From: a virus
Reading direction: 5' to 3' (one strand)
Virus record (IMG/VR): IMGVR_UViG_3300037484_000374
Coordinates: 106,952-170,951 of that record
DNA length: 64,000 bases
Positions 7,574 through 39,121 of this stretch are shown one piece after another; position 1 is the first letter of the stretch; every line of letters starts with the position of its first letter. Both the position numbers and the translations under genes were made by a program. Under the pieces are notes generated by a model. It saw only the letters and a program-made list of their open reading frames with translations. It searched no databases and was not told the origin of the DNA.

Positions 7574-7584
7574 AATAATTAAAT

Positions 7585-9466: not shown

Positions 9467-9664
9467 AACAAAATTTTTTCATCAAAATATAAGAAAGAAT
9501 TAAGCAAAATAGAACGAATAGTATTATTGAAAAATGGTGTGATGATCATGGTATGAAATATAGCAATACAAAATATCACATCAGAATGGGAAACAATTAT
9601 AGATGATATACTATAAAAAAACAGTAAAATATAAATTGTAAAATATGTATAAAAAGGATGATAA

Positions 9665-10455: not shown

Positions 10456-10459
10456 AACT

Positions 10460-10912
10460 ATGAGCAAAATAACAGTAACACCAGATGAGTTTGTTGATTT
10501 CGTAATATCGTTTTTGTTAAATAAAATGATACACAAGAAAGAGATGTTGGGTGATAACGAGAGATTTAACGATATCGTGGAAAGAATGGAGAGAGGTGGT
10601 TTGAAATCACATCTTCTACAAGCATTTCTGAAATTCGATTCTCAACAAAGGATGCAGTTTAAAAGAATAAAAGATGTATTTGAAGGGAAAGATAATGTCA
10701 GAAATACTATTGATATTCTCCCAGACAGAACATCCAAAGAAAAAGCTTTCCGTAACAAGGGTGATAACAGTTTTCTTAATGAAATTATTAAAAGAGTAAT
10801 AAAAGAGGCGAGGAGCTACAGGATCAGAACAGGTTGTCTTATTTCAAACGACAAAATGGAAAGGTTGATTGACAAAGTGTTAACAGAAGAGTATAATAAG
10901 GAGAGTAAATAA
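10460..10912 (+). CDS. hypothetical protein
   Basis: ORF in operon. Confidence 0.7.
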   Translation: MSKITVTPDEFVDFVISFLLNKMIHKKEMLGDNERFNDIVERMERGGLKSHLLQAFLKFDSQQRMQFKRIKDVFEGKDNVRNTIDILPDRTSKEKAFRNKGDNSFLNEIIKRVIKEARSYRIRTGCLISNDKMERLIDKVLTEEYNKESK

Positions 10913-11256
10913 TGGGTGCATTTACAGATGGAACAACACCAGCAGATTCAGCGGCGACTGACAAGGGAGTATCAACAGGTACGGTGGCAACAGGAGAAAC
11001 ACCAGAAGGTTTCGCAACAGATGTTGAGGGGTGTAGAGCAGATGCCGAAGTAAAGGTTGGAACCGAAAATTATCCTGTATTTGATGTTGATGATAAAGAG
11101 TTTTATCAGAATATGAAGTACGGACGAAAAAGATTACGATTCGGTGCTGAGTCAAAAGCTGGAACGTATCTAAGGGGAACCAGATATAAAAGACCATTTT
11201 TTGTTCGTCATACTGATCCAAATGGTAAGGCGTATATAAGAAAAATTGAAAAATAA
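10912..11256 (+). CDS. hypothetical protein
   Basis: AGGAG RBS; ORF in operon. Confidence 0.7.
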   Translation: MGAFTDGTTPADSAATDKGVSTGTVATGETPEGFATDVEGCRADAEVKVGTENYPVFDVDDKEFYQNMKYGRKRLRFGAESKAGTYLRGTRYKRPFFVRHTDPNGKAYIRKIEK

Positions 11257-11482
11257 TCTCAAACGACAGGTGAGCAAAATACCTAAAAGAAAAAAGAAGG
11301 TCTATGGTCATTGTGAACTTTGTAAAAAAAACTTTGATAGTAGTAAAATATATAAAGGTGTTTGTGAAGGTTGTTTAGATGGTATATTAGATACATGGGA
11401 AGATATGTATCACAAAAGTGCCTATGGTGATAAACTGAAACGTGTAGTATAAATTGTGATTTAAAATAAACAGGTATATAAT

Positions 11483-12415
11483 ATGTCTAAGAAAATTGTG
11501 GTTGTTGGTTCAGGTGCAGAGCACTTGGGTATACGCAGTGATATACCTATTGTAAATAATAAGTTTGCAAACGGTGAAATAAATTTTCAATACAAGAAAA
11601 GTGTGCGTGGTAAAATTGTAAATATAATTCAATCATTTCCAGATACCAACAACAATATAATGGAATTGATGTTGATGATCGATGCCGCCAAGAGAGCGGG
11701 AGCATCAGCGGTTAATGTTCTTTTAACCATATTCCCATACTCAAGACAGGACAAGAAACACGATAGTGGTACTCCCATATCAGCCAAAGTTGTATGTGAA
11801 ATGTTATGTTCTGTCAGACCATCTAGAGTAGTTACAATAGACTTACATGCCGCACAAATACAGGGGTTCATGCCTAACAAGGTTGGGTTTGATCATATAA
11901 ATTCTTGTGCGTTCCTCGCATACCATCTCAAAAAACAAATAGACGATATAGAAGATTGGGTGTTTTGTTCACCGGACATTGGGGCAGTTAAAGGAACTCT
12001 AAAACTCGGTGGTTTATGTGGTGCTCAAGATTATGTAATCATCAACAAGACCAGAAAGAAAATAAATGAAGTTGATTCAATGGATGTTATCGGTGAAGTG
12101 GGTGGTAGAAAGGTGTTGATATTTGATGATATCATTGATACGGCTGGAACCCTTGAGTGTGCTATGAAGAATATATTCAAACTTGGGGCTTCTGATGTGG
12201 CCGCTATAGCCACTCATGGGGTGTTTTCTGGACCAGCATTTGATAGATTAAAAGGTCATAAGGTATATGTTACAAATACTTTACCGATCAGTGAAGATCG
12301 ACCATCAACGTTAACGGTTTTTAACATTGATAAATTTGTACTTAATATAATAAACAGGCTTAATAACGATGAGATGTTAAGTCCTTTATTTGAAAAATGG
12401 GAGGAAGTAAAATGA
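11483..12415 (+). CDS. prs: ribose-phosphate pyrophosphokinase
   Basis: FANGE, PYSRQDK, DLHAAQIQGF, SPDIGA, DDIIDTAGT and THGVFS motifs. Confidence 0.93.
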   Translation: MSKKIVVVGSGAEHLGIRSDIPIVNNKFANGEINFQYKKSVRGKIVNIIQSFPDTNNNIMELMLMIDAAKRAGASAVNVLLTIFPYSRQDKKHDSGTPISAKVVCEMLCSVRPSRVVTIDLHAAQIQGFMPNKVGFDHINSCAFLAYHLKKQIDDIEDWVFCSPDIGAVKGTLKLGGLCGAQDYVIINKTRKKINEVDSMDVIGEVGGRKVLIFDDIIDTAGTLECAMKNIFKLGASDVAAIATHGVFSGPAFDRLKGHKVYVTNTLPISEDRPSTLTVFNIDKFVLNIINRLNNDEMLSPLFEKWEEVK

Positions 12416-12654
12416 TTAATTTGTTTTTTAATATGATTATTGTTATGTTTGGGTTGATTATAATGCCTATATTGTCTATTATGGTTTTATATGTACTTGT
12501 CGGTGTAATTATAGTCGCTTATCTTATCATTATAATGGCTATCGATTTGATTGGTCTATTGATTAGATGGGTATATAACATGTATAATTCAATCATTTCC
12601 AGATACCAACATTGGAAATACAATAGACTGTCAATGACAAAGAGAGACAAATAA
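12412..12654 (+). CDS. small membrane protein
   Basis: Long hydrophobic stretch. Confidence 0.55.
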   Translation: MINLFFNMIIVMFGLIIMPILSIMVLYVLVGVIIVAYLIIIMAIDLIGLLIRWVYNMYNSIISRYQHWKYNRLSMTKRDK

Positions 12655-13535
12655 TGGCGAAGGTAATGTTCGATTTTAACAACTTGGCTATACGAACAGT
12701 TTTCAGTGCTGATGTTCTCACAAGAAATGATAAGAAAGAAATCATCGATGTGGATTGGGAAACATGGAGACTTTATACCTTCTCAAGTTTATACGGTGCG
12801 TTGTTTGCTGTAAAGAACGTGAGTGAGATTATAGTTGCTATCGATTCTAAGCCATCGTGGCGGCTTGGGATATGGAATCGATACAAGGAATCTCGGAAAG
12901 CAAAACGAGATGTTTCAACTCTCGATTGGGATTTATTTTTTGTAAATTACAACCAGCTTATAGCCGATCTAAAGACCCATTTCCCATTTAAGTTTATGGA
13001 AGTGCCGAGATGTGAGGCTGATGATATTATAGGGGTTTTGACTCTTAACACAGAAGAGAAGATTCATATCATATCAATGGATAAGGACTTTCTACAATTA
13101 AGCTGTGATCGGGTTAGTATATATGATCCCCTTAAAAAAACAAATGTGTCACATCCAAATCCAGATATTTTCTTGATCGAGCAATGTTTAATTGGCCAGA
13201 AAAAAGATGATATCTATAATATTATCACACCCCTTGATCATCCTCATGGAAAGAGAAAACCAGGGTTTGGTCCAGCGGCACTTGAAAAAGTTATGGTATA
13301 TGGGTGGTATGGGTGGTTACAAGATAATAATCTGGTTGACCGGTTCAAGTTCAACCTTCGCCTAATGGATTTCAGAATGATACCGGAAGATGTCAAAGCG
13401 ACAGTGCTGAAAGAGTATAATGATTATGTTCTTCCACCACCTGATATGATTTATAACTTTTTCAAAGATCATGAGTGGCCTACATATATTGAGAAATTAA
13501 CGGCTGTAGAGAATAACCTATACAGACTATATTAA
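12654..13535 (+). CDS. rnh: T4-type RNase H / 5'-3' exonuclease
   Basis: DFNN, SWR...YK..R, EADDIIG, SMDKDFLQL and D.I.NI motifs. Confidence 0.9.
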   Translation: MAKVMFDFNNLAIRTVFSADVLTRNDKKEIIDVDWETWRLYTFSSLYGALFAVKNVSEIIVAIDSKPSWRLGIWNRYKESRKAKRDVSTLDWDLFFVNYNQLIADLKTHFPFKFMEVPRCEADDIIGVLTLNTEEKIHIISMDKDFLQLSCDRVSIYDPLKKTNVSHPNPDIFLIEQCLIGQKKDDIYNIITPLDHPHGKRKPGFGPAALEKVMVYGWYGWLQDNNLVDRFKFNLRLMDFRMIPEDVKATVLKEYNDYVLPPPDMIYNFFKDHEWPTYIEKLTAVENNLYRLY

Positions 13536-13764
13536 CTCGCAAAATGTGGCGATATAACGAGACTATCTGGGGTTAAGTCGCAACACATGCCGACTCGACT
13601 TAAATCAAAATAGGGTAAGAAAAAGTTTTACCCTATCAAAAATTTAAAAATATTTTATGTAGCAAAATAGGATACTTATATATAACGGTACTGATATTAC
13701 TACTAAAATTTTTTGAGACTATTTAGAACAACTTTTATAAATAAAACTGTAAGAAGGAGAAAAC

Positions 13765-14202
13765 ATGATATTGAATGTTGTTTATTTACCTCATTATTTC
13801 GGTGATCTTCTCAGATATGAAACCGATGGAAGTTCTGGTTTTGACTTGAGGGCAAGTGAGGGTGGTAGATTAAGATCACTGCAAAGGACTATTGTTAAAA
13901 CAGGGTTGAAAATAGGAATCCCATCAGGTTTTGAAATGCAGATAAGACCACGTTCTGGTTGTGCTATAAAAAACGGATTAACCATTATTAATTCTCCTGG
14001 GACAATAGATTCTGATTTCACCGGAGAAATTGGAATTCTATTAATCAACCTATCGGATGGAGATCAGATTTGGGAGGCTGGTGATAGATTGGCACAGGGT
14101 GTTATATGTCCAGTTGTGCATGTTGTTAGATTTTGGCCGGTTGAGGAATTGGATGAAACAGAACGAGGTAATGGTGCTTATAACAGCACCGGAAGGAAAT
14201 AA
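13765..14202 (+). CDS. dut: dUTPase
   Basis: GFDLRA, RPRSG, GTIDSDFTGE, RLAQ and RG.G...STG motifs. Confidence 0.95.
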   Translation: MILNVVYLPHYFGDLLRYETDGSSGFDLRASEGGRLRSLQRTIVKTGLKIGIPSGFEMQIRPRSGCAIKNGLTIINSPGTIDSDFTGEIGILLINLSDGDQIWEAGDRLAQGVICPVVHVVRFWPVEELDETERGNGAYNSTGRK

Positions 14203-14483
14203 AATGTCAGTAGATATTAATAAGATGTTACAGGATTCGATGGTCATCACATAGCAAGACGAACAAGAGAAATATTGGGGTATAAGAAGGGTGATCTAAA
14301 ATGTTGTATGTGTGGAAATATGGAAGCAACAAATAACAGACAACGAACAGCGTATCCAGATTCGGATAATATGTGTGTATTGTGTCCAGTTTGTCAAGAG
14401 GACGCAGATAAACATTGGGATGAAGTGTGGGCTGACTACTACTCATCAAGAATGTAAAAAATTAAACTAATAAAGGGGAGTTA

Positions 14484-17348
14484 ATGTATTTAAAAGTAAC
14501 ATACGCACAACAATTTGATGATTTGATCATGCATCTGAAATCAAAGTATCCGAGAAGATTATTTGACATGGAGGGTATAGGTAAACAAACAGATATGTCC
14601 TTGTTTTCAAAGGATTTTTTCACAACGAAAACAGTAACATCTGATGTATCTGTTGATGACAACAGTAACGTTGATGATATGTCGGTTATAACATATACCA
14701 AGGAACTACCAAAACCTTTCTTCAAGCTGAACAGCTACTATGTTCTATGGAAGAAAATGAAACAACTATATGGTAAAGCAAGAGCAAATGAAATTGTCGA
14801 GAAACAATTGACAGGTGATATTTATATCAATGATTTTACAGGTGTAGGTGCTGGAATACCGTATTGTATGAATTACAGCACGTATGATGTGGCCCTGTTG
14901 GGATTGCCGATGATCAAAAAAATTATCAGTAGTCCACCAAAATATTTATATTCTTTCAAATCACAGCTGGAACAGTTCGTTGTGATTGCGGCGAACAGCA
15001 CACTTGGGGCCACCGGCCTTGCAGATATGTTGATTGTCATGGCTTATTATGTTGATAAGATTTTTAGAACTGGAAAAGATGCAAGTTTTGCATTTGCCTC
15101 AGAAGAGGATGCTTGGTTATATATAAAGGAAACCATTGTGTCTTTTATATATACAGTGAACCAACCAAACCGTGGTAATCAGTGCGTAACAGAGGATACA
15201 GAAGTTTTAACACCTGTTGGATTTAAAACATATGATATGTTATCAGAAGGCGATAGCATCTATACATGGGATAACGGCAAACTCAATATTCAAAAGGTTG
15301 ATAGAGTTAATGTATATGATTATGATGGTGAAATGCACTGCTATACCGGAAGGGATTTTTGCCAGTGCGTAACACCAAACCATAGAATACTACACAAGAA
15401 GAATAATAATAGGGATGAGTATTTATTATCAGAGTCATGTAATCTAATAGATAAAAAAACTCCATTAACAGTGCCAGTGGCAATGATAGAGGATGACAGA
15501 GAAGATTATAATATATCTGATGATATGTTAAAACTTTGTGTTATGATTTTAACAGATGGGAATATCGATACAGAAAAAAATGGTAGGATTAAATTATATA
15601 AGTCACCCAAAAGGTATGGTAACAAATTAATAAAAGAAACTTTGGAATCATTGGGGGTGGATTATAGTCTTATAGAAAGACCATCTGTTTTTGATGGAAC
15701 AGTAAACCATTATGATATAACAACAGATAACTCACAAGAAATTTTAAATATATTAAATAGTACAAAAAAAGAACTACCCGATTGGTTTTTTAATCTTAGC
15801 AAAAGACAAGCAAATATAGCTATTGATTTATGGTCTAAATTTGATGGTTATAACGGTGATAATAGACAAAAGTTACAGTGTGATAATTATAAAATTGCGG
15901 ATCAACTACAACATGTTTGTTTTCTTGCTGGGAGAGGAAGCAGAATAACAAGCAGACTAATTGGCAACAATAAAAAAGAAACAATATATCTCATTCCTTA
16001 TAATAGAATTAATAAGGATGCATGTAAAAAAGAAAAAATTCACTATAAAGGAAAAGTGTGGTGTCCATCAACAAAAGACGGGGTTGTTGTTTTTAGAAAA
16101 AATGGAAAGGTTTTTATATCTGGAAACTCACCATTCACCAATATTTCAATATTTGATGATAATTTCCTTAATGAATTAGCACCAGATTATCGATTCGTTG
16201 AGGGTGATGAAGTCATAACTCCAAAGGTATCGACAATCAAAAAGCTACAAGAAATGTTTCTTCATTCGATGAACCATGAACTAAGACGAACACCTATAAC
16301 ATTCCCAATAACAACGGCGTGTTTTAGTGTTGATGAGGATCATAATATTCAGGATGAGAACTTTTTAGATTTGATCAGCAAAGAAAATATAGAATTCGGA
16401 TTTATTAATATGTATGCTGGAAAAACATCAACGTTATCAAGCTGTTGCAGACTTCGCAGTGATAAATCAAACGAATACTTTAACTCTTTTGGGTCTGGTT
16501 CAACCAAGATAGGAAGCCTTGGAGTGTGTACAATTAACTTACCGAGAATAGCCTTTGAAAATAAAGGAAACTCAGAGGCTTTTATTGATAAGCTGATTGA
16601 ACTTGCTGTTGATTGTCAGCATGTAAATAATGCAAAAAGAAGCATTATTAAAAAGCGTATTGAGTCCGGTAACCTTCCACTGTATGATCATGGGTTTATG
16701 GATATAAACAAACAATATTCCACCATCGGTGTTAATGGCTTCTATGAGGCCGTAACTGAAATGGGATATGATATAATGTCAAATGAAGGACAGGAATTTG
16801 CCATAATGATTTTAGAAACCCTGAACACTGTAAATGATAGACTACAGAAACAATACGAAGCACCTCATAATGTCGAGCAGGTTCCTGGGGAAAGCCTCAG
16901 TGTTAAGTTGGCCTCTAAAGATAAGCTGTTTAGGATTCAGGACAAATATGATTTTTACTCTAACCAATTTATCCCCCTTATATGTAAAGCTGATTTGTTA
17001 GACAGAATAACATTGCAGGGATTATTTGATAGCCATTTCAGCGGCGGGGCCATTGCTCATTTAAATGTAGAGCAGAGAATTGAGGACTATAATATTGTAA
17101 AGAAATTGATTCGTAGTGCTGTGAAGAAAGGTGTTATCTATTTCGCCGTGAATTACACGTTACAGCGATGTGCAAAGAGTCACATGAGTGTCGGTAGGGG
17201 TGATAAGTGCTACTGTGGTGCTGATATAATAGAGACATATCAACGAGTTGTTGGTTTTCTCACAGCGACACGCACATGGAATAAGACCAGAAGAGAGCTT
17301 GACGAGCCAAATAGGGTGTTTTATAAAAACAGTGATATAAAATTTTAA
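14484..17348 (+). CDS. nrdD: anaerobic ribonucleoside-triphosphate reductase (class III) with intein
   Basis: SPFTN, SCCRL, GSLGVCTINLPR, EQVPGE, SGGAI and C-terminal RVVGF glycyl-radical motif. Confidence 0.93.
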   Translation: MYLKVTYAQQFDDLIMHLKSKYPRRLFDMEGIGKQTDMSLFSKDFFTTKTVTSDVSVDDNSNVDDMSVITYTKELPKPFFKLNSYYVLWKKMKQLYGKARANEIVEKQLTGDIYINDFTGVGAGIPYCMNYSTYDVALLGLPMIKKIISSPPKYLYSFKSQLEQFVVIAANSTLGATGLADMLIVMAYYVDKIFRTGKDASFAFASEEDAWLYIKETIVSFIYTVNQPNRGNQCVTEDTEVLTPVGFKTYDMLSEGDSIYTWDNGKLNIQKVDRVNVYDYDGEMHCYTGRDFCQCVTPNHRILHKKNNNRDEYLLSESCNLIDKKTPLTVPVAMIEDDREDYNISDDMLKLCVMILTDGNIDTEKNGRIKLYKSPKRYGNKLIKETLESLGVDYSLIERPSVFDGTVNHYDITTDNSQEILNILNSTKKELPDWFFNLSKRQANIAIDLWSKFDGYNGDNRQKLQCDNYKIADQLQHVCFLAGRGSRITSRLIGNNKKETIYLIPYNRINKDACKKEKIHYKGKVWCPSTKDGVVVFRKNGKVFISGNSPFTNISIFDDNFLNELAPDYRFVEGDEVITPKVSTIKKLQEMFLHSMNHELRRTPITFPITTACFSVDEDHNIQDENFLDLISKENIEFGFINMYAGKTSTLSSCCRLRSDKSNEYFNSFGSGSTKIGSLGVCTINLPRIAFENKGNSEAFIDKLIELAVDCQHVNNAKRSIIKKRIESGNLPLYDHGFMDINKQYSTIGVNGFYEAVTEMGYDIMSNEGQEFAIMILETLNTVNDRLQKQYEAPHNVEQVPGESLSVKLASKDKLFRIQDKYDFYSNQFIPLICKADLLDRITLQGLFDSHFSGGAIAHLNVEQRIEDYNIVKKLIRSAVKKGVIYFAVNYTLQRCAKSHMSVGRGDKCYCGADIIETYQRVVGFLTATRTWNKTRRELDEPNRVFYKNSDIKF
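15183..16127 (+). mobile_element. intein with LAGLIDADG-type endonuclease in NrdD (315 aa)
   Basis: Q/CVTEDTEVLT...VTPNHR...VWCPST...VFISGN/S. Confidence 0.9.
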
Positions 17349-17512
17349 AAATAAACCATTATAGTTGACATCACGGGTATATTTTAGTATAATGTATAAA
17401 AAGAAAAGAAGATCACCGAAATTTTTTATTAATTCTATGAAAAATATAATAAATAAGGGATATATAGCTTTTAAAAACAAAAATTATAGTAAAGTATTTA
17501 TAGGAGAAAATT

Positions 17513-17980
17513 ATGAATATTGCAGGTGTTGATTATACGTTAAAAACACAGTCTATAGATATATATCTATCAGGCTGTCATCCACCACATTGTCAGGGTT
17601 GTCACAATCCAGAGGCATGGGATTTTAATGTGGGTCACCCATATGATGAGGTTACTTGTAAACTTATCTTAGAAAAGATTGCCAATAATTCAGATATCGT
17701 TGATAACATTTTTGTTATGGGTGGGGAACCACTTGACCAACCATTATTTGAATTGATGACCCTTCTTGGTGATCTAAGAGAAGCGGGAAAAGCAATCTGG
17801 TTGTTTACTCGATATGAACTCGATGATATTTCTCCAGAAATAGGTATAATGTGTGATTATATAAAGACAGGCCGATATGTTGAATCACTGACATACGGAA
17901 CCGTTGAAAGATACGGTCTAAAATTAGCCACCCTAAATCAAAGAGTGTGGAAAAGGGGAGTAGATTATTTCAATGAATAA
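17513..17980 (+). CDS. nrdG: class III RNR activating enzyme (radical SAM)
   Basis: SGCHPPHCQGCHNPEAWDF, GGEPLDQ, DYIKTGRY and NQR motifs. Confidence 0.9.
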   Translation: MNIAGVDYTLKTQSIDIYLSGCHPPHCQGCHNPEAWDFNVGHPYDEVTCKLILEKIANNSDIVDNIFVMGGEPLDQPLFELMTLLGDLREAGKAIWLFTRYELDDISPEIGIMCDYIKTGRYVESLTYGTVERYGLKLATLNQRVWKRGVDYFNE

Positions 17981-18236
17981 GCAACAGCAACCACAACAGA
18001 TTAGTTTTGATGTTAGGCAAGCGGAAACAATGGTTTGTCCAAAATGTAACTGTCCTGTATGGGATACTAAAACAGTTCTGAAACGTGTATCAGCTATTAT
18101 AGCTGGAACAGAGCAGATTGCCCAAGTACCAGTTTTGGTTTGTGCAAATTGCGGAACCTGTGCCCCGGGAACAGAAGCCATTATCGGTGAAGTAAAAGCA
18201 CCAGAAGGAGTACCATCAACAATACTTACAAAATAA
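17973..18236 (+). CDS. zinc-ribbon hypothetical protein
   Basis: CPKC...CANCG. Confidence 0.7.
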   Translation: MNKQQQPQQISFDVRQAETMVCPKCNCPVWDTKTVLKRVSAIIAGTEQIAQVPVLVCANCGTCAPGTEAIIGEVKAPEGVPSTILTK

Positions 18237-18245
18237 GAGGATAAT

Positions 18246-18755
18246 ATGTTTGAGTATAATGAAGTATCAGATGCTATAGACAATTTAATTAAGTTGAATA
18301 TGAAGATCAGGAAAAATTTAGACCCTGATATACGTATGAATATATCAGCTGGTTCTTTTGCCGTTGACTTCTGTACAGTAAGATTTAACATAGGCAGAAG
18401 GGTAGGGAAGACCAGATACATAGAAGAACATGCCGATGATCATTCATTAACGATTGTTGCTAATCATCATATTAGAAGAAACCTGAGAAACACAAAAGGT
18501 ATGATCTTCACAGCACATGAAATTGATAGCGGTGGTTTGCATATACAGAACCAAACTCGATATCTTGATGGTGATTCAAAATTCTCGGGAGTGGATCATT
18601 ATAAATCAGATGGTAAAATATTTGAGTTTACCAGAGTATATGTTGATGAACCATCTTTCGTGTTTAAAGACAAAAATCACATGTTGGATATCTATCATAT
18701 AATTTGTAGACTCAATAGAAACACAACACCAACTTTTATTTTATTGGGGTCGTGA
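18246..18755 (+). CDS. small P-loop-like protein
   Basis: GRRVGKT and VYVDE (Walker A/B-like). Confidence 0.55.
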   Translation: MFEYNEVSDAIDNLIKLNMKIRKNLDPDIRMNISAGSFAVDFCTVRFNIGRRVGKTRYIEEHADDHSLTIVANHHIRRNLRNTKGMIFTAHEIDSGGLHIQNQTRYLDGDSKFSGVDHYKSDGKIFEFTRVYVDEPSFVFKDKNHMLDIYHIICRLNRNTTPTFILLGS

Positions 18756-29580: not shown

Positions 29581-30402
29581 ATGAAACAAATATTAAAAGA
29601 TGTGTGTGAAAGATATGATTTTCTGAATTATGAAAAACTGTTAGAATACCCTATGCCTCTAAATGCTCCTATAATCACCGTAGCGATGCTTTCATTTATG
29701 AGGTATGACAGGCTCATCTCAACCCTTAAAAACCTCTTATCGCTCCATATACCCCTTAATTTATGTATCAGGGTACAGGGTACTGAGTTATTAACATATT
29801 TCCAAAAAAGAGACATATTAAAATTTGTTGATGCGTTCAGCGGTCACGATATCCAATTTACAAGAGGGAACCACGGAACCGGTACACCACGGGGAGATGT
29901 TATAGAAAGAGCATATAAGCATTTCGATACTCCTTATATATTAACCACCGATGACGATATGTTATGGAAAACAGAATCATTAATAATACAACGATACATG
30001 CTTGAAACAAATAAAGAATTGGGTGCATGTAGCGTGACCTGTACGCCTCATTATAATGCTTGGAATATAATAGGTGACAAGTTGGTGGGAAGAACACCTA
30101 TACCACCATTTGATATCAATGTAGATGCATCTGGGTCTGGGACAATGCTATTCAAACGCCAAATACTTGACAATTCAGAAGTGGTCTATGATAAAAACTT
30201 TTATATAGGCTGGGCCGATTTCGATTTCTGTATGCAGATGAGAAAGAAATGGAAAATTGGCATCATAGATATCCCAGAGCTAAAAATCAAAAACAATTAT
30301 GATCCAAAAGCCAAAGACTACTTGGCTGTAAGGGGTTGTAAACAACACAACATCAATTCAAAGAAATACTTCCAAAAGAAATGGGGTTTATTAATTTCAT
30401 AG
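29581..30402 (+). CDS. glycosyltransferase family 2
   Basis: YILTTDDD; GWADFDFC. Confidence 0.8.
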   Translation: MKQILKDVCERYDFLNYEKLLEYPMPLNAPIITVAMLSFMRYDRLISTLKNLLSLHIPLNLCIRVQGTELLTYFQKRDILKFVDAFSGHDIQFTRGNHGTGTPRGDVIERAYKHFDTPYILTTDDDMLWKTESLIIQRYMLETNKELGACSVTCTPHYNAWNIIGDKLVGRTPIPPFDINVDASGSGTMLFKRQILDNSEVVYDKNFYIGWADFDFCMQMRKKWKIGIIDIPELKIKNNYDPKAKDYLAVRGCKQHNINSKKYFQKKWGLLIS

Positions 30403-30533
30403 TCTGGTTTACATCTCATTAAAAATACGTTATAATATATTTAATGAGATGTATCATTAAACAAGCCCTAAATGGTTTGGTGTGATCAATTGCAAAATAA
30501 TGACCAACCTCTTCCAATTGAGAAATTGAGAAT

Positions 30534-31553
30534 ATGCGTCTATTAATTACAGGTGGTACGGGTTATATAGGGTCACATACATGTGTTGTGTTGATGCAAG
30601 CTGGTCACGAAGTGGTGATCTTAGACAACCTTTGCAACAGTCGGCGCGATGTGGTTAATCGTATTGGCCGGATTGTCGGTTGGGAGCCTGCGTTCGTTGA
30701 GGGTGACGTGCGTGATCGCTCTTTGGTTCGCCGATTGCTTAATGACGAAGGTATTGATGGTGTGATGCACTTCGCTGGCTTGAAGGCGGTGGGAGAGTCG
30801 GTGGCCCAACCTCTTGCCTATTACGATTGCAATGTTTGCAGCACCATTGCATTGTTCGAGTCAATGGTGGAGGCGGGGGTGAAGGTACTGGTTTTCAGCT
30901 CGTCCGCAACAGTTTACGGATATCCAAAGACAGTGCCAATTAGTGAGGATTTTCCATGTTCAGCAACTAATCCTTACGGACGTAGTAAACTTATAATTGA
31001 GGATATCTTATCCGACCTTCTCAGGGCAGACCCGGCATGGTGTATTGCATGTTTGCGCTATTTCAACCCAGTTGGGGCGCATGAGAGTGGTATGATAGGC
31101 GAGGCGCCACTTGGTGTACCTAATAACCTCGTGCCTTATATAACTGACGTGGCGGCAGGGCGGCGGGAACGGCTCGAGGTTTTCGGTGACGATTATTCTA
31201 CCCGGGATGGTACAGGAGTGCGTGATTACATTCATGTTATGGATATGGCCGAAGGACACGTAGCCGCACTTAACGCGCTTGTAGCCAAAAGCGGAATGTT
31301 TACTGTCAACCTAGGTACAGGGTGCGGCTACACAGTGTTGGAAATGGTTCGTGCGTTTGCTGCTGCGAGTGGGAAAGAAGTTCCCTATGTTTTATCCCCT
31401 CGTCGTCCTGGTGATGTGGCTGAGTGTTATGCAGATGCGACACTCGCATCGACATTGTTGAATTGGCAGGCAAAGCGGGATATCCATGCCATGTGCCGTG
31501 ACACTTGGAGATGGGAACAATGGCGTTTACATTCCATTAAAAATATGTTATAA
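30534..31553 (+). CDS. galE: UDP-glucose 4-epimerase
   Basis: GGTGYIGSH, HFAGLKAVGES, FSSSATVYG, YGRSK, LRYFNP.GAH and RDYIHV motifs; GC higher than the flanks. Confidence 0.95.
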   Translation: MRLLITGGTGYIGSHTCVVLMQAGHEVVILDNLCNSRRDVVNRIGRIVGWEPAFVEGDVRDRSLVRRLLNDEGIDGVMHFAGLKAVGESVAQPLAYYDCNVCSTIALFESMVEAGVKVLVFSSSATVYGYPKTVPISEDFPCSATNPYGRSKLIIEDILSDLLRADPAWCIACLRYFNPVGAHESGMIGEAPLGVPNNLVPYITDVAAGRRERLEVFGDDYSTRDGTGVRDYIHVMDMAEGHVAALNALVAKSGMFTVNLGTGCGYTVLEMVRAFAAASGKEVPYVLSPRRPGDVAECYADATLASTLLNWQAKRDIHAMCRDTWRWEQWRLHSIKNML

Positions 31554-32345
31554 TATATTATAAGATAAATTAAAAGGAGTAATTATAAATTTCAAAGATG
31601 ATCTTCATGATCTAAAGAAACTGTTTAAAAATAAAGGGGAAGAAATGGCGCACGAGATGGGAGTCGAAGAATTTTTTCGGGGGGTAAAAGACCTCCGAGA
31701 AATGAGAAAAAACGACCCGGAAGGCTATCAAAAGTGGTGTAACGACAGGGGACTGACAGAAGATTCAGAGCCATTGGTGTTTACTGCGGACCCGGATGAA
31801 TAGCGGTTTGGTGTTATGGAACCATAATTTATATCAAGTGGTGATCAAGTAGCAATAATTGACTATAATATAAGTTATACTTACCTGAGAGCAAAGAGCA
31901 TTTAGTATAATAATAACAGTTATATACAAAAATGTGTTAATTTGTAAAAAAGTAGTCTAAAATTGTCCATATAATGTAATAATCTGTTAAAAATTGAATA
32001 GGAATATAATATGAAGATAGGTGATAAGGGTTGTTGGTCTCTGGAACACAAACTATTGAGGTGCAGCGATGACGAGTAATTCAGGAGATTATGGATATGA
32101 ATCAAGATGAAGCGGATATGAATCAAGATGAAATTGAAAGACAAGCAGATGAATTTTTTGCAACAAAGCTAATGAAAACTGTTAAGGTTAGCAATAATGA
32201 TTGTTTCGGTTGCCGGGCGAAACGTAAAAAACGTAAAAAACGTGGATTGCCTTGTTAAGGTTAGAAGTAAGCGGCAGGCCACAGGGCGACCACTTATTAA
32301 TTTTTTTTGCCGGATGCGTTATCCCATGCGGTTGAGGAATTGGTT

Positions 32346-32564
32346 ATGTCGATAAAAGTAAATAAAATTCGTGTAGTTATATATCCCGCCGACTTTCCGA
32401 AAAATATAAAAATGACCCCTGAAAATTGGAGCGACTGGCTAACCGGCAAGTTGGTTGACCACGGGATACCAGCAGATACCCCACAAACTGTTAATAGTGG
32501 GGTTATAAGTCGATTTGATGACCCCGGAAATGAGGGGCAGATTATTTACGAGTGGAAAGCATAA
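32346..32564 (+). CDS. cassette gene, hypothetical
   Basis: ATG within GTTATGT; TAA within GCATAAC. Confidence 0.65.
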   Translation: MSIKVNKIRVVIYPADFPKNIKMTPENWSDWLTGKLVDHGIPADTPQTVNSGVISRFDDPGNEGQIIYEWKA

Positions 32565-32652
32565 CGCTTCGGTTAACCAGTGGCGAGCCACCGAAGCAAT
32601 TTATTAAACTCAACAGCAGACCCCGCCATCTGCGTTGAACCGATTGTTATAT
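32559..32652 (+). repeat. attC-like site 1
   Basis: GCATAAC..TCGGTTAAC...GTTGAACCGATT-GTTATAT. Confidence 0.75.
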
Positions 32653-32667
32653 TTCAGGAGGCGCAGG

Positions 32668-32883
32668 ATGGAAAAGATAGTTGGTGATTGGCATATTGAA
32701 GTAACGATGTCAGCGGATGAAGCAAAAGAGGTCTGCAAGATGGGTAGTGGTGCTGGCGGTTTTGAGTGCATCAGGATGTCATACCCAGCGAACGGGAGCA
32801 TTTTCTCTCGTTTGAAGGACGGGACTATGAAGGCAAAGGGCGAAGGTGGATGGGCCGGTTGTGCTTGGCACGGGGAAATATAA
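32668..32883 (+). CDS. cassette gene, hypothetical
   Basis: AGGAGG RBS right after attC1; TAA within ATATAAC. Confidence 0.65.
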   Translation: MEKIVGDWHIEVTMSADEAKEVCKMGSGAGGFECIRMSYPANGSIFSRLKDGTMKAKGEGGWAGCAWHGEI

Positions 32884-32994
32884 CGACAAGTTGAGACGCG
32901 TCACGCGGAACTTAGCAAAGATAAATTAAACAATGGAGGACAATCCGCCAAGAAAGTGCCAGTGTGGGCGTCGGGCTTGAGCGGATTGTTATGC
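32878..32994 (+). repeat. attC-like site 2
   Basis: ATATAAC...GCTTGAGCGGATT-GTTATGC. Confidence 0.7.
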
Positions 32995-33003
32995 GAGGTT
33001 TTT

Positions 33004-33273
33004 ATGATTGATTTTAAAAAAGTAAAACCACCTAGCCTACTTGATATGTTCGGTAAATCTGTTGATGAATGGACGGTTAATGAAAAGCTACATATTGCGA
33101 CAGAGTATAAAAAACTGCAATGCAACAATATAGAGTGCCACTGTGGAAGAGATGTGCTGAAAAGCATTTGGGAAGCAATACACCAGACTCCAGCATGTGG
33201 ATTAAATGCGATACTTTGTGCGGCAGCGCAAGAAATTGACGCTTTGCGAAACATGGTTAATGCCGACACATAA
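33004..33273 (+). CDS. cassette gene, hypothetical
   Basis: GAGG RBS after attC2; TAA within ACATAAC. Confidence 0.65.
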   Translation: MIDFKKVKPPSLLDMFGKSVDEWTVNEKLHIATEYKKLQCNNIECHCGRDVLKSIWEAIHQTPACGLNAILCAAAQEIDALRNMVNADT

Positions 33274-33404
33274 CGCTCCGGCTACAAAACCAGGGCAACA
33301 AAAAATAATTAATATCATTTTTTCTATTGACTCTCTCTGATATTATGGTATTATTAAATCAAAGGGAAGGCAATAAAGCACTCTCGCAAAACAGGGAGCA
33401 AGAC

Positions 33405-33596
33405 ATGAAAACTTACAAAGAAATGTACGAAGAAGCCGCTGCTAAAACAAACGGAGAATACAAGGGGTATACAAAAGGCAACGCCCTTTCTCTGTACGTT
33501 GACGAAAAATACGGGGTGAATGCGGCGGCGAACAATGCCGCTCATGACGCTCTTTGTGAAGTTGCATCAACAATGAGTTTGGACGATGAAGAGTAA
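33405..33596 (+). CDS. hypothetical protein with its own promoter
   Basis: TTGACT..TATTAT promoter; GGGAG RBS. Confidence 0.65.
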   Translation: MKTYKEMYEEAAAKTNGEYKGYTKGNALSLYVDEKYGVNAAANNAAHDALCEVASTMSLDDEE

Positions 33597-33853
33597 AAAG
33601 GCGGCAATAGACCGGCCCTTGCACCTGAAGAAAAGCCGGTTGATATCTCCCTGCGCCCCCGCGCGATCTGGTTGAGAAACTGGACGCTATGGAAGGCAGT
33701 CGGGCGAAACTGATAATTGCAGCCTGTCCGGCCTCGATAATAAAAAATAAATAAAATAGAAATAAATTGCGATTATCGCTTGACGCAATAGAAATATAAT
33801 GCTATACTGTATTTAACAAAGGGCGATAAAGCCAAAGTTAAAAGGAGATAGCA

Positions 33854-34108
33854 ATGAAACTTAAATCAGACGACAAAAAAACTAATCAGTACCTTTTTCA
33901 TTCCGAAGAGATTTCCGTTGTTGAGTCTACCGACGCTTACAAACTGGTGGAATTTAAACGCGGCTTGGATTTCGGGCTTGCTCTTGTAATTGACGGAAAA
34001 GTAAAAGAGCTTCAGTGTCGTGGCAGATACGAATGGGACAAGATGAAAAAAGCAAACCCGGACACTTGGATTTCTGATATGAAAGAATATTTCATCTTCT
34101 TCATGTAA
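33854..34108 (+). CDS. hypothetical protein with its own promoter
   Basis: TTGACG..TATACT promoter; AGGAG RBS. Confidence 0.7.
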   Translation: MKLKSDDKKTNQYLFHSEEISVVESTDAYKLVEFKRGLDFGLALVIDGKVKELQCRGRYEWDKMKKANPDTWISDMKEYFIFFM

Positions 34109-34124
34109 TCAAAGGAGGCACAAA

Positions 34125-34367
34125 ATGAAATTTGAAAAATATGTTTTCGGGACGATGTTAAACGGATGGAGTATCACAAAATACACGGACGGCGAAATGA
34201 TTCGGATTGTTGCAGAACATTCCGAGCACGACGATGCCGGTGAAAGGAATTTTGAAAGCGAAAATGATTATGAAATATGGATTGACAGCATAGTTGATGA
34301 TGAGACAGCGATCTATAGCCCGGCCGAAGCGGTTAACCGTGTGTTGAAGGCACTAAGAAATGACTGA
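34125..34367 (+). CDS. hypothetical protein
   Basis: AGGAGG RBS. Confidence 0.7.
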   Translation: MKFEKYVFGTMLNGWSITKYTDGEMIRIVAEHSEHDDAGERNFESENDYEIWIDSIVDDETAIYSPAEAVNRVLKALRND

Positions 34368-34528
34368 TTACGTCAAACAACTTCGAGAAAAAGGCTGGAC
34401 GGCTCAAGAACTGGCGAAGCGGTGGGGGGGTTACTCCCCGCCGCATTTCGCAAATCGGCAATGGCCCGAGTCAAAAAGATTGGGACGCTTTGGCCGGGCT
34501 GCCGCCCAAAGTTGCCCCGGCAGACTAA
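34360..34528 (+). pseudogene. small HTH protein frameshifted in a G7 tract
   Basis: With G6 it reads ELAKRWGVTPRRISQI...PAD* and ends in the R'' box GACTAAC. Confidence 0.7.
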
Positions 34529-34588
34529 CGACCAGCATAAGCGGTTGCCGGGCAGTTTCGGCAATCCGACTTAATGCGCTGGTTATGC
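34523..34588 (+). repeat. attC-like site 3
   Basis: GACTAAC-GACCAGCATAAGCGG-TTGCCG..CGGCAA-TCCGACTTAATGCGCTG-GTTATGC. Confidence 0.85.
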
Positions 34589-34756
34589 GATTTTAAATTT
34601 ATGGGGGTGGCGGTACCTAATCTTGGTTGCTCTTGATTACTGCGAAAAGACGCAGGCCCCCCCGCCTTTTTACATTATGGCCGAAAGCATATGAGAACAC
34701 ATCCGCCGTGGACCGGGGCCATGTGTGAGTAGGCCATTTGGGGAAGAGGAGAGAAA

Positions 34757-34948
34757 ATGAAATTAAGGCTATCAAAAGAAAAAGACATGATGTGCGGGTG
34801 GTGTTTTGAACCGGATGATGTCCTGGCGATCCGCGACGAATATGAGAAGAGAAACGGAAACGAGGTTGCCAGCGATCTTGAATTTATGGATGATATTTTG
34901 GCAATCCTCTGGGAACACAAACTATTGAGGTGCAGCGATGACGAGTAA
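34757..34948 (+). CDS. cassette gene, hypothetical
   Basis: GAGGAG RBS. Confidence 0.6.
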   Translation: MKLRLSKEKDMMCGWCFEPDDVLAIRDEYEKRNGNEVASDLEFMDDILAILWEHKLLRCSDDE

Positions 34949-35132
34949 AGAAATGATGCAGACAAAGCTAAAAAAAGGGGGAATTTTTGAAAACCAGAGC
35001 AAGCTTGGCAGTAAGCCAAACTGGAAGATCATTCCTGCGAATATCGACAAGTATCCGTCTTTTGCTGCTTTCTGCGATGAATGTGGCTGCCCGTTCCATG
35101 ACGGAAAACCGGGATGCTATTGTTCAGCATAA
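34938..35132 (+). CDS. cassette gene, Cys-rich hypothetical
   Basis: TAA within GCATAAC. Confidence 0.55.
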   Translation: MTSKEMMQTKLKKGGIFENQSKLGSKPNWKIIPANIDKYPSFAAFCDECGCPFHDGKPGCYCSA

Positions 35133-35219
35133 CGCCCCGCATAACCAGCGTGGCCTAAAGGTTAATTCCCGATAGGGCCGCAGGCGTTTACCACGTCTGC
35201 GTTTATGCGATTGTTGGGC
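35127..35219 (+). repeat. attC-like site 4
   Basis: GCATAAC..CGCATAAC..GTTTATGCGATT-GTTGGGC. Confidence 0.8.
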
Positions 35220-35233
35220 CGCTCTTGACCTTA

Positions 35234-35494
35234 TTATTTTTTAAAATCAATTGGTAAATAAATGGTGAATCCATGAGAAACACGTTTATTGGAATATTTA
35301 TATTCACAGTAACCCCTTGGCTTTCTTTCTCCTCTACATGACTGTTCATTTTCTATCATGTGTTCAGAGCATAAAAAGCCACACGTTTCGTCTTGTTCTA
35401 CAAATATTTCTTTAATGTCTTGATAACAGTCATAAAGATAAACTTTATAATCAGCGCTATTGGTACAATTTTTTACACAACATTTTTGTTTCAT
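35234..35494 (-). CDS. Cys-rich hypothetical protein (antisense within its cassette)
   Basis: MKQKCCVKNC...CGFLCSEH. Confidence 0.55.
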   Translation of the reverse strand: MKQKCCVKNCTNSADYKVYLYDCYQDIKEIFVEQDETCGFLCSEHMIENEQSCRGERKPRGYCEYKYSNKRVSHGFTIYLPIDFKK

Positions 35495-35522
35495 GTTTAA
35501 CCTCAAATTTATGGTGAATAAA

Positions 35523-35792
35523 ATGAAAGAAATTGAAATTAAAATTACAGGCGAAAACAAGACTGGTAAAAGTAAAATTGCATGTTTGATAAGTAATGTC
35601 TTAAAAAATAGTGGAGCAACAATAACTTGTGAAGATGATTTCTTTAATTATGTAGGTAAAAACATTAATTTAGAAGAATGTAATATTGTTGTTAAAGTTC
35701 AATCTGTTAAATATCGGGCTCCCAACGGTATGACTATAATGTATGGCGATCCAAAAGAAGGCAAAAGTTGTCATGAGAACCATGTTTTATAA
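35523..35792 (+). CDS. hypothetical protein with P-loop-like G..KTGKS
   Basis: ITGENKTGKS. Confidence 0.5.
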   Translation: MKEIEIKITGENKTGKSKIACLISNVLKNSGATITCEDDFFNYVGKNINLEECNIVVKVQSVKYRAPNGMTIMYGDPKEGKSCHENHVL

Positions 35793-35832
35793 AACCTTTT
35801 GTTTATAACCTGGGCGGAAGTCGCAAGCCTCC

Positions 35833-35922
35833 GCCCAACGACCAAGGTAACGCGACCGGGCCACGATGCCTGGTTGCGAAGCCGCCGACGTTACCCCGGT
35901 CGCGTTGACCGTTTTGTTAAGT
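35833..35922 (+). repeat. attC-like site 5
   Basis: GCCCAAC..GGTAACGCGACCGGG...CCCGGTCGCGTTGACC..GTTAAGT. Confidence 0.85.
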
Positions 35923-36039
35923 TTTGAGCCACCGAAATTATTTTAAAAAACTTTGTTTTAGGTGTTGACTTATACACGCAATGCGTATATATTAAGACCA
36001 AGAGTTAAGCATAACTAACCAAAACAAAGGAGACAAACC

Positions 36040-36303
36040 ATGAGAAACTTAATCACGAGAGAAGAAGCTGTAAAAATGGTAGGCGAAGAACTGGTAAACA
36101 CCGCAGAGCAGACAAATTGTGATAACGCCTGTTTTGTTACCGATGGGACTGCATGGGCCGGGTACGACGCATACACCGCAACGGCTGATAATGACGACTA
36201 TCGGGTAACTGTTTATTATTTGCAGGATGCGGAAGAAACAAAAGATATCCCCCTTGACGATATGTCGTGGGAGATCGAAGGCTACGAGGTTGAGGAAGTT
36301 TAA
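36040..36303 (+). CDS. acidic hypothetical protein with its own promoter
   Basis: TTGACT..TATATT promoter; AGGAGA RBS. Confidence 0.7.
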   Translation: MRNLITREEAVKMVGEELVNTAEQTNCDNACFVTDGTAWAGYDAYTATADNDDYRVTVYYLQDAEETKDIPLDDMSWEIEGYEVEEV

Positions 36304-36506
36304 TGACAGGCCAAGAACTTAGAGAGGCCCGGCTTCGGCTGGGCCTCAACATGCGCCAAATGGCGGAAGCACTCGAAACACCATACCGGACATACCAGGA
36401 TTGGGAACTCGGAAACCGGCGCATTCTCGGCGTGTGCAATGTGGTTGTTTTTTTGCTGTTGAAATACAAGGGCGCAGTTAACGCATTACTGGCTCGAGAA
36501 ACTTAA
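36303..36506 (+). CDS. XRE-family HTH regulator
   Basis: LREARLRLGLNMRQMAEALETPYRTYQDWELG; TAA within ACTTAAC. Confidence 0.85.
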   Translation: MTGQELREARLRLGLNMRQMAEALETPYRTYQDWELGNRRILGVCNVVVFLLLKYKGAVNALLARET

Positions 36507-36557
36507 CCAATGATTGGCAGGCATTTTTGCCCCGCTATTTAATATTATAGGGGTATT

Positions 36558-36743
36558 ATGATTAATGTAAAAGAATATGATCAGGTTGAGATATGGGATG
36601 ATTTTGGTGGTGCGGACACGATTGCCGCATGCTACCTTGAAAACTCTTTGAACCAAGGGAAAACTGTTTCAATCCCAAGTTTGGGGATCACCATAAAAGA
36701 ACCTAGCGGAAACGCAATTACATGTAAAAACACCAGAAAATAA
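36558..36743 (+). CDS. hypothetical protein followed by a truncated attC left half
   Basis: GCCCAACCAGGCGCTGCAC at 36748. Confidence 0.5.
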   Translation: MINVKEYDQVEIWDDFGGADTIAACYLENSLNQGKTVSIPSLGITIKEPSGNAITCKNTRK

Positions 36744-37016
36744 TGCAGCCCAACCAGGCGCTGCACATTGGAGGTAAAAATATGGTTAAGATCACAGTAA
36801 AGTGCGTGGAATGGGGGTCAATATGCGAGACTGGCACCCAGCACTTTTGCCCCACTAAATAATTATTTTAGCGGTGCCAGATAAACCAACATCCAAATCA
36901 TTACTGGACATAGCAGATATTGCGTCGTGGTGGATTTGATCATACCATTTTTCACAATCTTTATGGTCTTCTTTAAGACTTGCTTTACCCTGCCTCTACT
37001 TGTTTACTTCCCTGTG

Positions 37017-37086
37017 AAAATCTTGTCATTACATCTCCTATTATATTTACTATCATTATACCACAATACTTGTTGTGTGTAAACTT
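37017..37086 (-). repeat. 70-bp exact inverted copy of 952-1021 (promoter + RBS + start codons)
   Basis: Direct comparison by eye. Confidence 0.9.
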
Positions 37087-38208
37087 ACAAGGAATATTAT
37101 TTCAGGAAAAGTATTGATATCCCTGAAAAATCATATAATAGAACTGAAAAAAAAGTGTATAGTTTTATGTTCCAATTGTCATAGAAAACTACATATTGGT
37201 TTGATTCATCTATAGAAATGTTGAAATTCCTTATTAATTTATCTTATAATTTATACTACAATGTGGTATATTTCTGCTATTTAATCATTTCATTAGATTG
37301 TTGTTAAATGGGGGTAAAATGAGGTTTCACTCTCGGTCAGAGACTAGACACAATCAAAACCAAGAACAAATGAATATCCTTGGTTTTGATTGTTGTTATT
37401 TCTTCTTCAATTCACTGTAATTATATGATACACGCTCTTTATCCTTAAACTCAACAGCGTAATCACCCTTTGTCTAACCCTTACCTACTGTAACCAATAC
37501 CCTCACCCACTAAATACTTGTCTTCTATATTCAATTCTCCTTATATTAATTGTCTCTTTACTATTTATACAGGAAATATTGTAATTTGTAAAGAATTTTA
37601 TTATTTTATTTAAAAAATACCCATTTTTATAAGTTACTAATGTTGTGATACAAAATGCCATTTACTCTCAGGGTTTCATAACATTTTTATTTCCCTTTCT
37701 CCCATGAAAAATTATTTAAAATATTTTTATCGGGTATATGGGTGTATAAAATGTGGTAATCGGGGGTAGAATTACAAAAAGTCCAGCGAGTAACGGATTA
37801 ATATTATACTAATGGAAGATTACAAAGATGCACAGGGTATGGGATACAGAGAGATGGTGGTTGAGGAAGGAATATATATACCCACCGAGATGATGGCGGG
37901 TTGATTTAAGTCCGTGGCTCGGTAAAGTATTTTCTCCATTATTTTTAATGTATTTTATATACTTTATTAAAATATTCTCTTAATTTACCCTCTCTTAACT
38001 ATATAATATCATTACCATAATAATCTGTTCAATTATACCTGAAATCATAGCAATGTAAACCCCTTCCCAGCCCATGTCTTAGAGCCTCTATTTTAATTCC
38101 ATTATTTTTTTTTCATTTTAGAAAACGTATCGTTTTCTACCACACACCCACACACACCCACACACACCCACCTCATACCCACCTCATACCCTCAGATATA
38201 TCAGATAG

Positions 38209-39121
38209 TTATCTCACACAACCGATACAAAAGATCACCCTGACTTCAACCCTATGTTTCAAAATCCCTACCCCCCCCTTGTGGATAGGGATTGTAGCTG
38301 AAAACTTCTCGCTACTATTGGCTTCTTGAAATAGCCTGTTCCTCTTAGAGAGGACATAGTTATAACGGATGTTCTTGGCGGCATTTAAGTCGATGTGATC
38401 GATATGACCGCAAGAAGAACAAATGTAGTTGCTTTTCTTACGGCTGTTCTTCTCAGTAACTCCACACACATTACACTTTTGACTCGTGTATCCGGGGTCA
38501 ACATAGACAACTTCAATACCGTTAAATTCACATTTATATTCAAGAAATGATTGAAATTGAAAATAAGACCAGTTAGAAAGCCAAGAATTTAGTTTATGAT
38601 CTTTTCTCTGGTTTCTGAGTCCTTTCAAATTTTCGAGAACATAAGTGCTAACATCGTGACTTGATAGCTGCTTTGTAACAACATGATTGAAATCTCGCAT
38701 GAACCGCATTTCTCGACCAGACAGCTTCTTTAGTTTCCGTTTCGCTGATCGAGTGCCTTTTTGCTGTAATTTCTTTCTATTATACTGGTACTTTCTTTTA
38801 ACAGCTACCGTTTTTTTAGATGATATGATTTTACCATCCGATAATGCACAGAGATTATACAAACCTCTATCAATTCCTATTATTTTCAGTTTTTACTTTT
38901 TCTTTGACTTTATAAACAAGGCATAACCAAAATTGACCGTTTTTGAATGTTAATTGCCCTGCCTGAACATCGTTTGTATTTACACTGTACTTTGTTACAA
39001 ACCATTCAGGAATATCATGGAGGGCTCGTACTCTTTTATTATTACTGCTTATAGTGGTAAGTTGCCCTCTACGGGACAGAGATAGTTTATTCAAGTGGAG
39101 TGTAACCGAGAGGGACAGCAT
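38209..39121 (-). pseudogene. tnpB: IS200/IS605-family TnpB, split and 5'-truncated
   Basis: VLENL, W.Y.Q....LEYK, V.P.YTSQ.C..CG, C..CG...D.NAAKNI; the GID motif sits at the frameshift. Confidence 0.85.

Follow-up and report, generated by a model that had tools for sequence, protein, structure and literature searches.

A probable mirror-image integron cassette array, lacking an integrase gene, in a distant T4-like phage

The array and its phage

We have analysed a stretch of 64,000 nucleotides (hereafter the window; bases 106952-170951 of the linear, 170,951-bp IMG/VR record IMGVR_UViG_3300037484_000374, CheckV completeness 71%), in which the region between 32.3 and 36.8 kb is occupied by five complete attC-type sites, four half sites and the small genes lying between them (Table 1). 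T4-type gp23, gp20 portal, gp21 protease and NrdD are all encoded in the window, marking the phage as T4-like. Its gp23 shares only ~35% identity with that of any cultured phage, and no match was obtained when the array region was compared with cultured phages by megablast. The phage is a distant T4-like one of at least 171 kb, and the array sits in its hyperplastic early region. An earlier note on this DNA had listed the five complete sites together with partial ones, and had read them as an integron-type attC array inside a T4-like phage. All the listed sites were recovered where that note had placed them, and its reading was borne out both by site structure and by cross-recognition with bona fide attCs.

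The flagged stretch has a G+C content of 43.3%, versus 35.3% for the genome, a difference that would suit an assembly chimera in which a piece of a bacterial integron had been joined to a phage contig. Such a chimera is most improbable. Three close relatives obtained from other samples (L015, L016 and L025, 94-99% identity) carry the same phage-backbone/array junctions, and since these junctions recur in independent contigs, the array is part of the phage and the chimera reading was rejected. Moreover, a T4-like relative of 204 kb (L002, with 40-55% protein identity and synteny) carries an attC near-identical to site E at another locus (8245-8339), and the gene polarity of the array is opposite to that of bacterial arrays. 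The upstream flanking gene (29581-30402), when used as a query for relatives, found none.

Table 1. Parts of the attC array, in window coordinates. R1, covariance model built from phage sites (see text); aa, amino acids; HTH, helix-turn-helix; arrow, point of strand exchange. For attC sites, the strand is that of the canonical top strand.
Feature	Position	Strand	Description
Half attC P0	32310..32349	-	R''-L'' half kept, + strand ...GCGGTT[G]AGG-AATTG-GTTATGT; R'-L' half lost, no AAC partner upstream; L''-5 nt-GTT geometry is that of A, E and F; left array end
Cassette gene c1	32346..32564	+	72 aa, no family; ATG in GTTATGT, TAA in GCATAAC; missing from close relatives L015 and L016
attC A	32559..32652	-	94 nt; R1 107.7 bits; near-identical copies in L003, L006, L007, L018, L019, L023, L025 and L026
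Complete cassette	32565..32884	+	attC A body and c2; AA↓C at both boundaries
Gene c2	32668-32883	+	71 aa; end of c2 reads ...GGGGAAATATAA; site A stretch reads CGCTTCGGTTAACC
attC B	32878..32994	-	117 nt, long; not scored by R1
Cassette gene c3	33004..33273	+	89 aa
Half attC C	33268..33300	-	R'-L' half ACATAAC-GCTCCG-GCTACA..., truncated, then AT-rich promoter
Promoter-bearing segment	33301..34522	+	No intact attCs; four genes p1-p4; sigma-70-like promoters at 33327 and 33780
p1	33405-33596	+	In promoter-bearing segment
p2	33854-34108	+	In promoter-bearing segment
p3	34125-34367	+	Weakly AcrF1-like
p4	34360-34528	+	HTH; frameshifted at G7 run
attC D	34523..34588	-	66 nt; R1 33.7 bits, E = 3e-8, not in model
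Cassette with c5a and c5b	34589..35132	+	c5a 34757-34948, c5b 34938-35132; ends GTTATGC / GCATAAC
attC E	35127..35219	-	93 nt; R1 77 bits
Low-G+C cassette (27-30%)	35220..35832	+	Divergent genes 35234-35500 (-) and 35523-35792 (+); ends GTTGGGC / GCCCAAC
attC F	35833..35922	-	90 nt; R1 25.9 bits, E = 7e-6, not in model
Cassette with own promoter (35965)	35923..36506	+	c7a 36040-36303, c7b 36303-36506 (HTH); ends GTTAAGTTT / AAACTTAAC
Half attC G	36500..36535	-	R'-L' half
Gene c8	36558..36743	+	61 aa; retained in L015 and L016
Half attC H	36748..36775	-	GCCCAAC-CAGGCG-CTGCAC...; right array end

Structure of the attC sites

The attC_aadA1 site of R100, when read in gene direction, has the form GTCTAAC-AATTC-GTT[C]AAGCC...GGCTTAAC-TCAAGC-GTTAGAT. 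The same layout, namely a 7-nt box, a 5-nt spacer and a 3+bulge+3 box, followed further on by a 6-nt box, a 6-nt spacer and a GTT box, is found on the window minus strand in sites A (ATATAAC-AATCG-GTT[C]AAC...GTTAAC-CGAAGC-GTTATGC), D (GCATAAC-CAGCG-CAT[T]AAG...CTTATG-CTGGTC-GTTAGTC), E (GCCCAAC-AATCG-CAT[A]AAC...GTTATG-CGGGGC-GTTATGC) and F (ACTTAAC-AAAAC-GGT[C]AAC...GTTACC-TTGGTC-GTTGGGC). Inverse core sites of the form RYYYAAC and GTTRRRY are present in all five complete sites, AAC and GTT being invariant in the alignments. The extrahelical bases asked for by the earlier note occur on one arm only, the 3' arm of the + strand, at positions 16, 20 and 24 from the 3' end, and the same arrangement has been described for the bottom strands of VCR2 and attCoxa2 (PMC5027507). 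A-type and E-type sites are set apart by compensatory changes at four stem positions, and site D folds into a single hairpin with three bulges on one arm. Site B, inspected by hand, is a long attC, in which two G.T wobbles allow the L box (GTTGAG / CTT[G]AGC) to pair on the + strand; the homologue of site B in contig L017 (1314-1434, 121 nt) reads GCTAAG / CTT[G]AGC.

In addition to these comparisons, a covariance model (R1) was built from phage sites only, namely A, E and four homologous sites of other viral contigs. On the 171-kb record it recovered D and F, both outside the model, and no further places beyond the array sites. Its sole match in 50 kb of R100 was attC_aadA1, in the sense orientation (32.7 bits, E = 2e-6). 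In Tetrasphaera phage TJE1 it found three attCs at the ends of orf1-3, and TJE1_attC1 and attC2 have been recombined experimentally by IntI1 (PMC9892861). In a Sedimenticola metagenome-assembled genome (MAG), two attCs were detected that follow sense cassettes and neighbour a bona fide IntI. The 'Myoviridae' record MW202573 of Qi et al., a cluster of attCs lacking an integrase (CALIN), gave no match with R1, which is uninformative either way. A whole-genome scan for AAC...GTT hairpins based on energy only was too noisy and was dropped.

The ends of the cassettes are complementary, as the earlier note had also stated. At 22/24 variable core positions, the right box of one site is reverse-complementary to the left box of the site that follows, the perfect runs being 6, 10, 6, 7, 7 and 9 nt long, whereas non-adjacent box combinations average 2.0/4 matches (permutation p = 0.002), and the box sequences themselves vary between cassettes. 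The register given to the cassettes did not stand; it has to be shifted by one site. Similarly, stop codons do fall within the boxes, the TAA stops lying in the ...TAAC boxes of A, B, C, E and G and, after correction of a frameshift at a G7 run, in that of D; these boxes, which had been called R'', are the R' boxes of the recombinogenic strand.

Hairpins situated directly after stop codons, the RNA of which would fold, could in principle be only terminators, RNA-stabilizing structures or chance palindromes, although we find this scarcely credible. Just one site overlaps a terminator-like match, and the region holds 6 such matches vs 7.4 in shuffles, on which comparison the terminator reading was rejected. 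Chance palindromes would not share conserved AAC/GTT cores, spacers and bulge positions, nor would the same sites occur across genomes with different genes. All structural tests that were run were passed, and, as judged from sequence and predicted folding, the sites appear to be genuine integron-type attCs. The locus is a CALIN.

Reversed polarity and cassette boundaries

In the aadA1 cassette, TJE1 and the Sedimenticola integron, the gene and the attC top strand have the same direction. Here, the attC top strand is the window's minus strand and the cassette genes lie on the + strand, with one exception (the divergent open reading frame (ORF) 35234-35500 on the minus strand of the low-G+C cassette), and it is therefore the canonical bottom strand that codes for them. 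Crossover is expected at AA↓C, directly behind the TAA stop, with each attC going with the gene downstream of it; read along the + strand, a cassette comprises C, the attC body, GTTRRRY, and a ribosome-binding site with its gene, ending in RYYYAA. The earlier note had placed insertion at G↓TT of the right-hand box, which had to be given up, since the polarity is inverted.

The segment 32565-32884, which contains attC A and c2, is 92% identical in two metagenome contigs (L019 and L026). The homology begins after TAA↓C and stops at GAAATATAA↓C, the flanks showing 28-40% identity. Since the homology is bounded at AA↓C, site A moves with c2 and not with the upstream c1. Site A and c2 thus appear to be a cassette that has moved between genomes, with boundaries exact at the crossover triplets. 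The close relatives L015, L016 and L025 lack window 32067-32530 and 33678-36578, so that cassette content differs between relatives while one cassette recurs elsewhere, in keeping with the cassette-based variability locus that had been proposed.

A pattern derived from sites A and E was used to retrieve related sites in the viral contigs L002, L003, L005, L006 and L007 and in nine metagenome contigs; these carry further attCs, with the same sites across genomes and different genes beside them. Terminase, RecT and helicases mark L005 and L006 as contigs of tailed phages. When the count was restricted to ORFs of 60 aa or more that terminate in the R' box, 11 sites in the phage family had an antisense-only ORF vs 3 with a sense-only one, compared with 1 antisense-only vs 37 sense-only among bacterial controls (52 attCs of the same pattern; Fisher p = 7e-8). 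The antisense ORFs usually stop at TAA, the complement of the TTA in G↓TTA, and the antisense layout holds over about ten phage contigs. A 60-kb phage, 100% complete and without a tyrosine recombinase (G005, L080), carries nine attCs at 1773-18685 in two blocks of opposite polarity, each antisense to its genes, so that attC polarity flips along with gene direction.

At 8210-8260 of L002, an E-type attC abuts a near-perfect palindrome, GAGGCTGTTATAAA-GTTA-TTTATAACAGCCTC, which looks as if the R'-side half site had been duplicated in inverted orientation.

Integrase and host

The earlier note had reported no integrase in the window, and this holds for the whole 171-kb record (71% complete), where searches with PF00589 and TIGR02249 revealed neither a tyrosine, serine or Y1-HUH recombinase nor an IntI. 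No PF00589 tyrosine recombinase was matched in the six phage records examined (G000-G005, this record and five related ones, one of them 100% complete). Neither attI, Pc nor intI adjoins the array, which is accordingly not a complete integron. It is most economical to infer an integron integrase acting in trans, because the bulge pattern is IntI-specific and IntI occurs in bacteria with the same attC pattern: 3/5 tested genomes, for example that of Desulfobulbaceae UBA5121, encode IntI above the TIGR02249 cut-off. As to the suggestion that the phage exchanges genes through a host or phage integrase, the movement of cassettes is thus supported, while the enzyme has to be postulated.

The sites might alternatively be attC look-alikes used by another recombinase, such as a small Xer-like phage enzyme or host XerCD. 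That none of the six phage records encodes IntI would agree with this, and so would the reversed polarity and a c3 junction lying at the other box (described below), which are not classical IntI behaviour. We nevertheless regard it as unlikely. The tyrosine recombinase family is missing from all six records, the 100% complete genome included, and the geometry and the extrahelical bases are those that IntI reads. Furthermore, the phage-built model recognizes attCs that IntI1 recombines, and the same pattern is found in IntI-encoding bacteria.

A strict two-part A/E-type pattern had no hit in 185,579 bacterial genomes, and a relaxed one retrieved 52 loci with at most 76% identity to the phage sites, a level at which no donor or host can be named. 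As a hint, the galE gene next to the array points weakly toward Rhodocyclaceae (its nearest named relatives, 67-69% identity), which is not decisive, and a c3 homologue is found in a Desulfobulbaceae MAG. The prophage locus carrying this homologue was examined and rejected; it has no attC, and its integrase is Xer-like, not IntI. No phage-borne relative of a Desulfobulbaceae IntI was detected in viral contigs by a method that reaches close relatives only.

Cassette cargo

Ten cassette proteins compared with Pfam and PHROGs belonged to essentially no families, in agreement with the small, phage-like cargo seen at the outset. The best matches of p3 are all to AcrF1, and all are weak and below threshold (Pfam E = 0.0019; PDB 5XLO E = 0.05). 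The HTH gene following p3 is broken at the G7 run 34424-34430, where a 1-nt shift restores the frame (GVTPRRISQIGNG...) and brings TAA into the box of site D; the break reflects a real frameshift or an error in sequencing. Small-protein and HTH gene pairs are seen at 34125-34367/34360-34528 and at 36040-36506 (c7a/c7b), behind strong sigma-70-like promoters, and this layout of a small gene followed by an HTH gene is the same as that of acr-aca operons. The cargo probably consists of small early accessory genes, possibly with an anti-defence role. The cassettes of L019 include DNA methyltransferases. The c3 homologue mentioned above (74% identity, 127 aa) immediately precedes a gene of the Zot family, within an inovirus-like prophage in the Desulfobulbaceae MAG (L014 6123-7381), and c3 therefore represents a gene family common to filamentous and tailed phages.

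Interpretation

Taken together, the locus is best explained as a mirror-image integron cassette array, that is, a genuine attC cluster without an integrase in a distant T4-like phage, to which we assign a probability of roughly 0.8. A host or a co-resident element would supply the integron integrase in trans, and cassettes would be excised and inserted by it. The substrate of the integrase would be the + strand in folded form; for the early genes, this strand is the non-template one. Inside the phage, the array would then be remodelled by the phage's microhomology or illegitimate recombination, and such later remodelling is proposed as the reason for the half sites and for the differences between the closest relatives.

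Several observations weigh against this explanation. Site B is atypical, and an internal hairpin within the window sequence competes with its L-box pairing. The + strand of the sites has no excess of purines or of G (GC skew -0.16 to +0.06), whereas the bottom strand of mobile-integron attCs is purine- and G-rich. Free folding yields only a modest pairing probability for the R boxes, 4/9 sites are truncated, and the enzyme has to be inferred, with no integrase gene in any of the six phage records. In the comparison of relatives suggested in the earlier note, the array content differs, but both indels that separate the closest relatives end at 9-13-nt microhomologies outside the attCs, which is not IntI-type excision, and ordinary illegitimate recombination therefore also remodels the locus. 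Finally, a c3 module with GTT...AAC as its exact limits recurs in L017 at 86% identity, yet the attC bodies that flank it there, left and right, are different ones. The homology stops at the other box, at its GTT, where strict bottom-strand IntI recombination predicts otherwise, and some exchanges therefore seem to involve the second box, or else homologous recombination inside the boxes.

Alternatively, the hairpins could mainly provide the phage's own recombination machinery with portable homology or with cruciform hot spots, akin to the promoter early stem-loop (PeSL) elements of T4-type hyperplastic regions, and have no current site-specific role. Besides the microhomology-flanked indels and the four truncated sites, such a reading may draw on two repeats. 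A perfect 37-nt direct repeat (32043-32079 and 34912-34948, 2.9 kb apart) corresponds to the last 12 codons of c5a, its upstream copy ending a tiny ORF (32012-32079), and is the scar of an earlier rearrangement. A direct repeat of 35 nt, 91% identical and carrying a T4-type early promoter (GTTTACA-N17-TATAAT; 30407-30441 and 31525-31559), brackets the galE gene (30534-31553, 50% G+C) next to the array. Both repeats represent the same kind of remodelling as the indels, and galE with its flanking promoters looks like a PeSL-style gene acquisition adjoining the attC array. PeSL shuffling in T4-type phages is documented (PMC2839356, PMC4122927) and, as here, concerns small novel ORFs, a hyperplastic region and repeated flanking motifs.

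However, PeSLs are promoter-terminator composites for homologous recombination, whereas the phage attC sites carry neither promoter hexamers nor T-run terminators and have site-specific boundaries; only galE is flanked by repeated early promoters. In all three contexts where it occurs, the segment 32565-32884 has its boundaries precisely at the conserved AA↓C, the complementarity of the ends varies by cassette, and homologous recombination would leave the one-sided bulges unexplained. The chance that the hairpins act mainly in this way thus seems to us slim, and the integron cassette array, remodelled secondarily, is preferred.

Clusters of attCs in phages, virulent ones included, have been published (Qi et al. 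2023, PMC9892861); they were reported only in that year, as rare and short, integrons having been viewed as bacterial devices. The arrays of that study resemble the present one in lacking an integrase and in having small genes and methyltransferases as cargo. They differ in size, with 2-4 sites in phages of 34-49 kb, in contrast to the 5 complete and 4 half sites of a T4-like phage of at least 171 kb. TJE1 and PH101 have also been described with the typical bacterial gene direction (PMC9892861), and we confirmed sense ORFs in TJE1, whereas the genes here are antisense. In a literature search, we found no paper on the antisense layout, nor on attC arrays in T4-like phages.

With bacterial cassettes (R100 attC_aadA1 and sediment chromosomal integrons) the phage sites share R and L boxes with 5- and 6-nt spacers, extrahelical bases and a terminal structure that varies; they are likewise 66-117 nt long, the ends of the cassettes are complementary, and the crossover is at a conserved AAC. 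On the other hand, bacterial integrons have intI, attI and Pc, all three of which are lacking here. The phage genes lie on the bottom-strand side and would face Pc in a bacterial integron, their stops use the TTA of G↓TTA, and several cassettes have their own promoters, unlike in bacterial integrons.

The nine-site array of this large phage of the virulent type shares a cassette with unrelated contigs, where its ends lie precisely at the crossover triplet, and this comparative evidence, which is direct, argues for natural movement of cassettes from one phage genome to another. That the genes are consistently reversed implies that phage cassettes are not merely borrowed bacterial ones; this points to a phage-specific pool, and it predicts that the coding strand is the recombinogenic strand. 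We therefore put forward, tentatively and at slightly less than even odds, a separate mirror-image pool of phage cassettes, in which virulent phages without a recombinase, from T4-like to 60-kb ones, borrow the integron integrase of the host, the cargo being largely devoted to anti-defence and host takeover. The recombinogenic hairpin would then form on the non-template, probably lagging-template, strand of highly transcribed early genes, and a bacterial integron that captured such cassettes would not express them. If host integrases do serve phages, integrons would be a shared exchange platform in the arms race between phages and bacteria, with defence genes stored in bacterial integrons and counter-defence genes perhaps stored in phage arrays.

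Neighbouring features

To the right of the array, the minus strand holds a 217-aa ORF (38209-38862) that is TnpB-like, with a Cas12f1-like TNB domain and a faint OrfB_IS605 match, as judged from Pfam hits on the identical gene of L015. No TnpA was found in the record. An AT-rich, ORF-poor stretch of 1.3 kb (36860-38200) adjoins this ORF and contains several minus-strand promoters of the T4 type; it could be the place of a guide RNA for the TnpB-like gene. Just upstream of the 3' end of that gene, at 38140-38195, there is a short run of imperfect ACACACCC / CCTCATACCC repeats.

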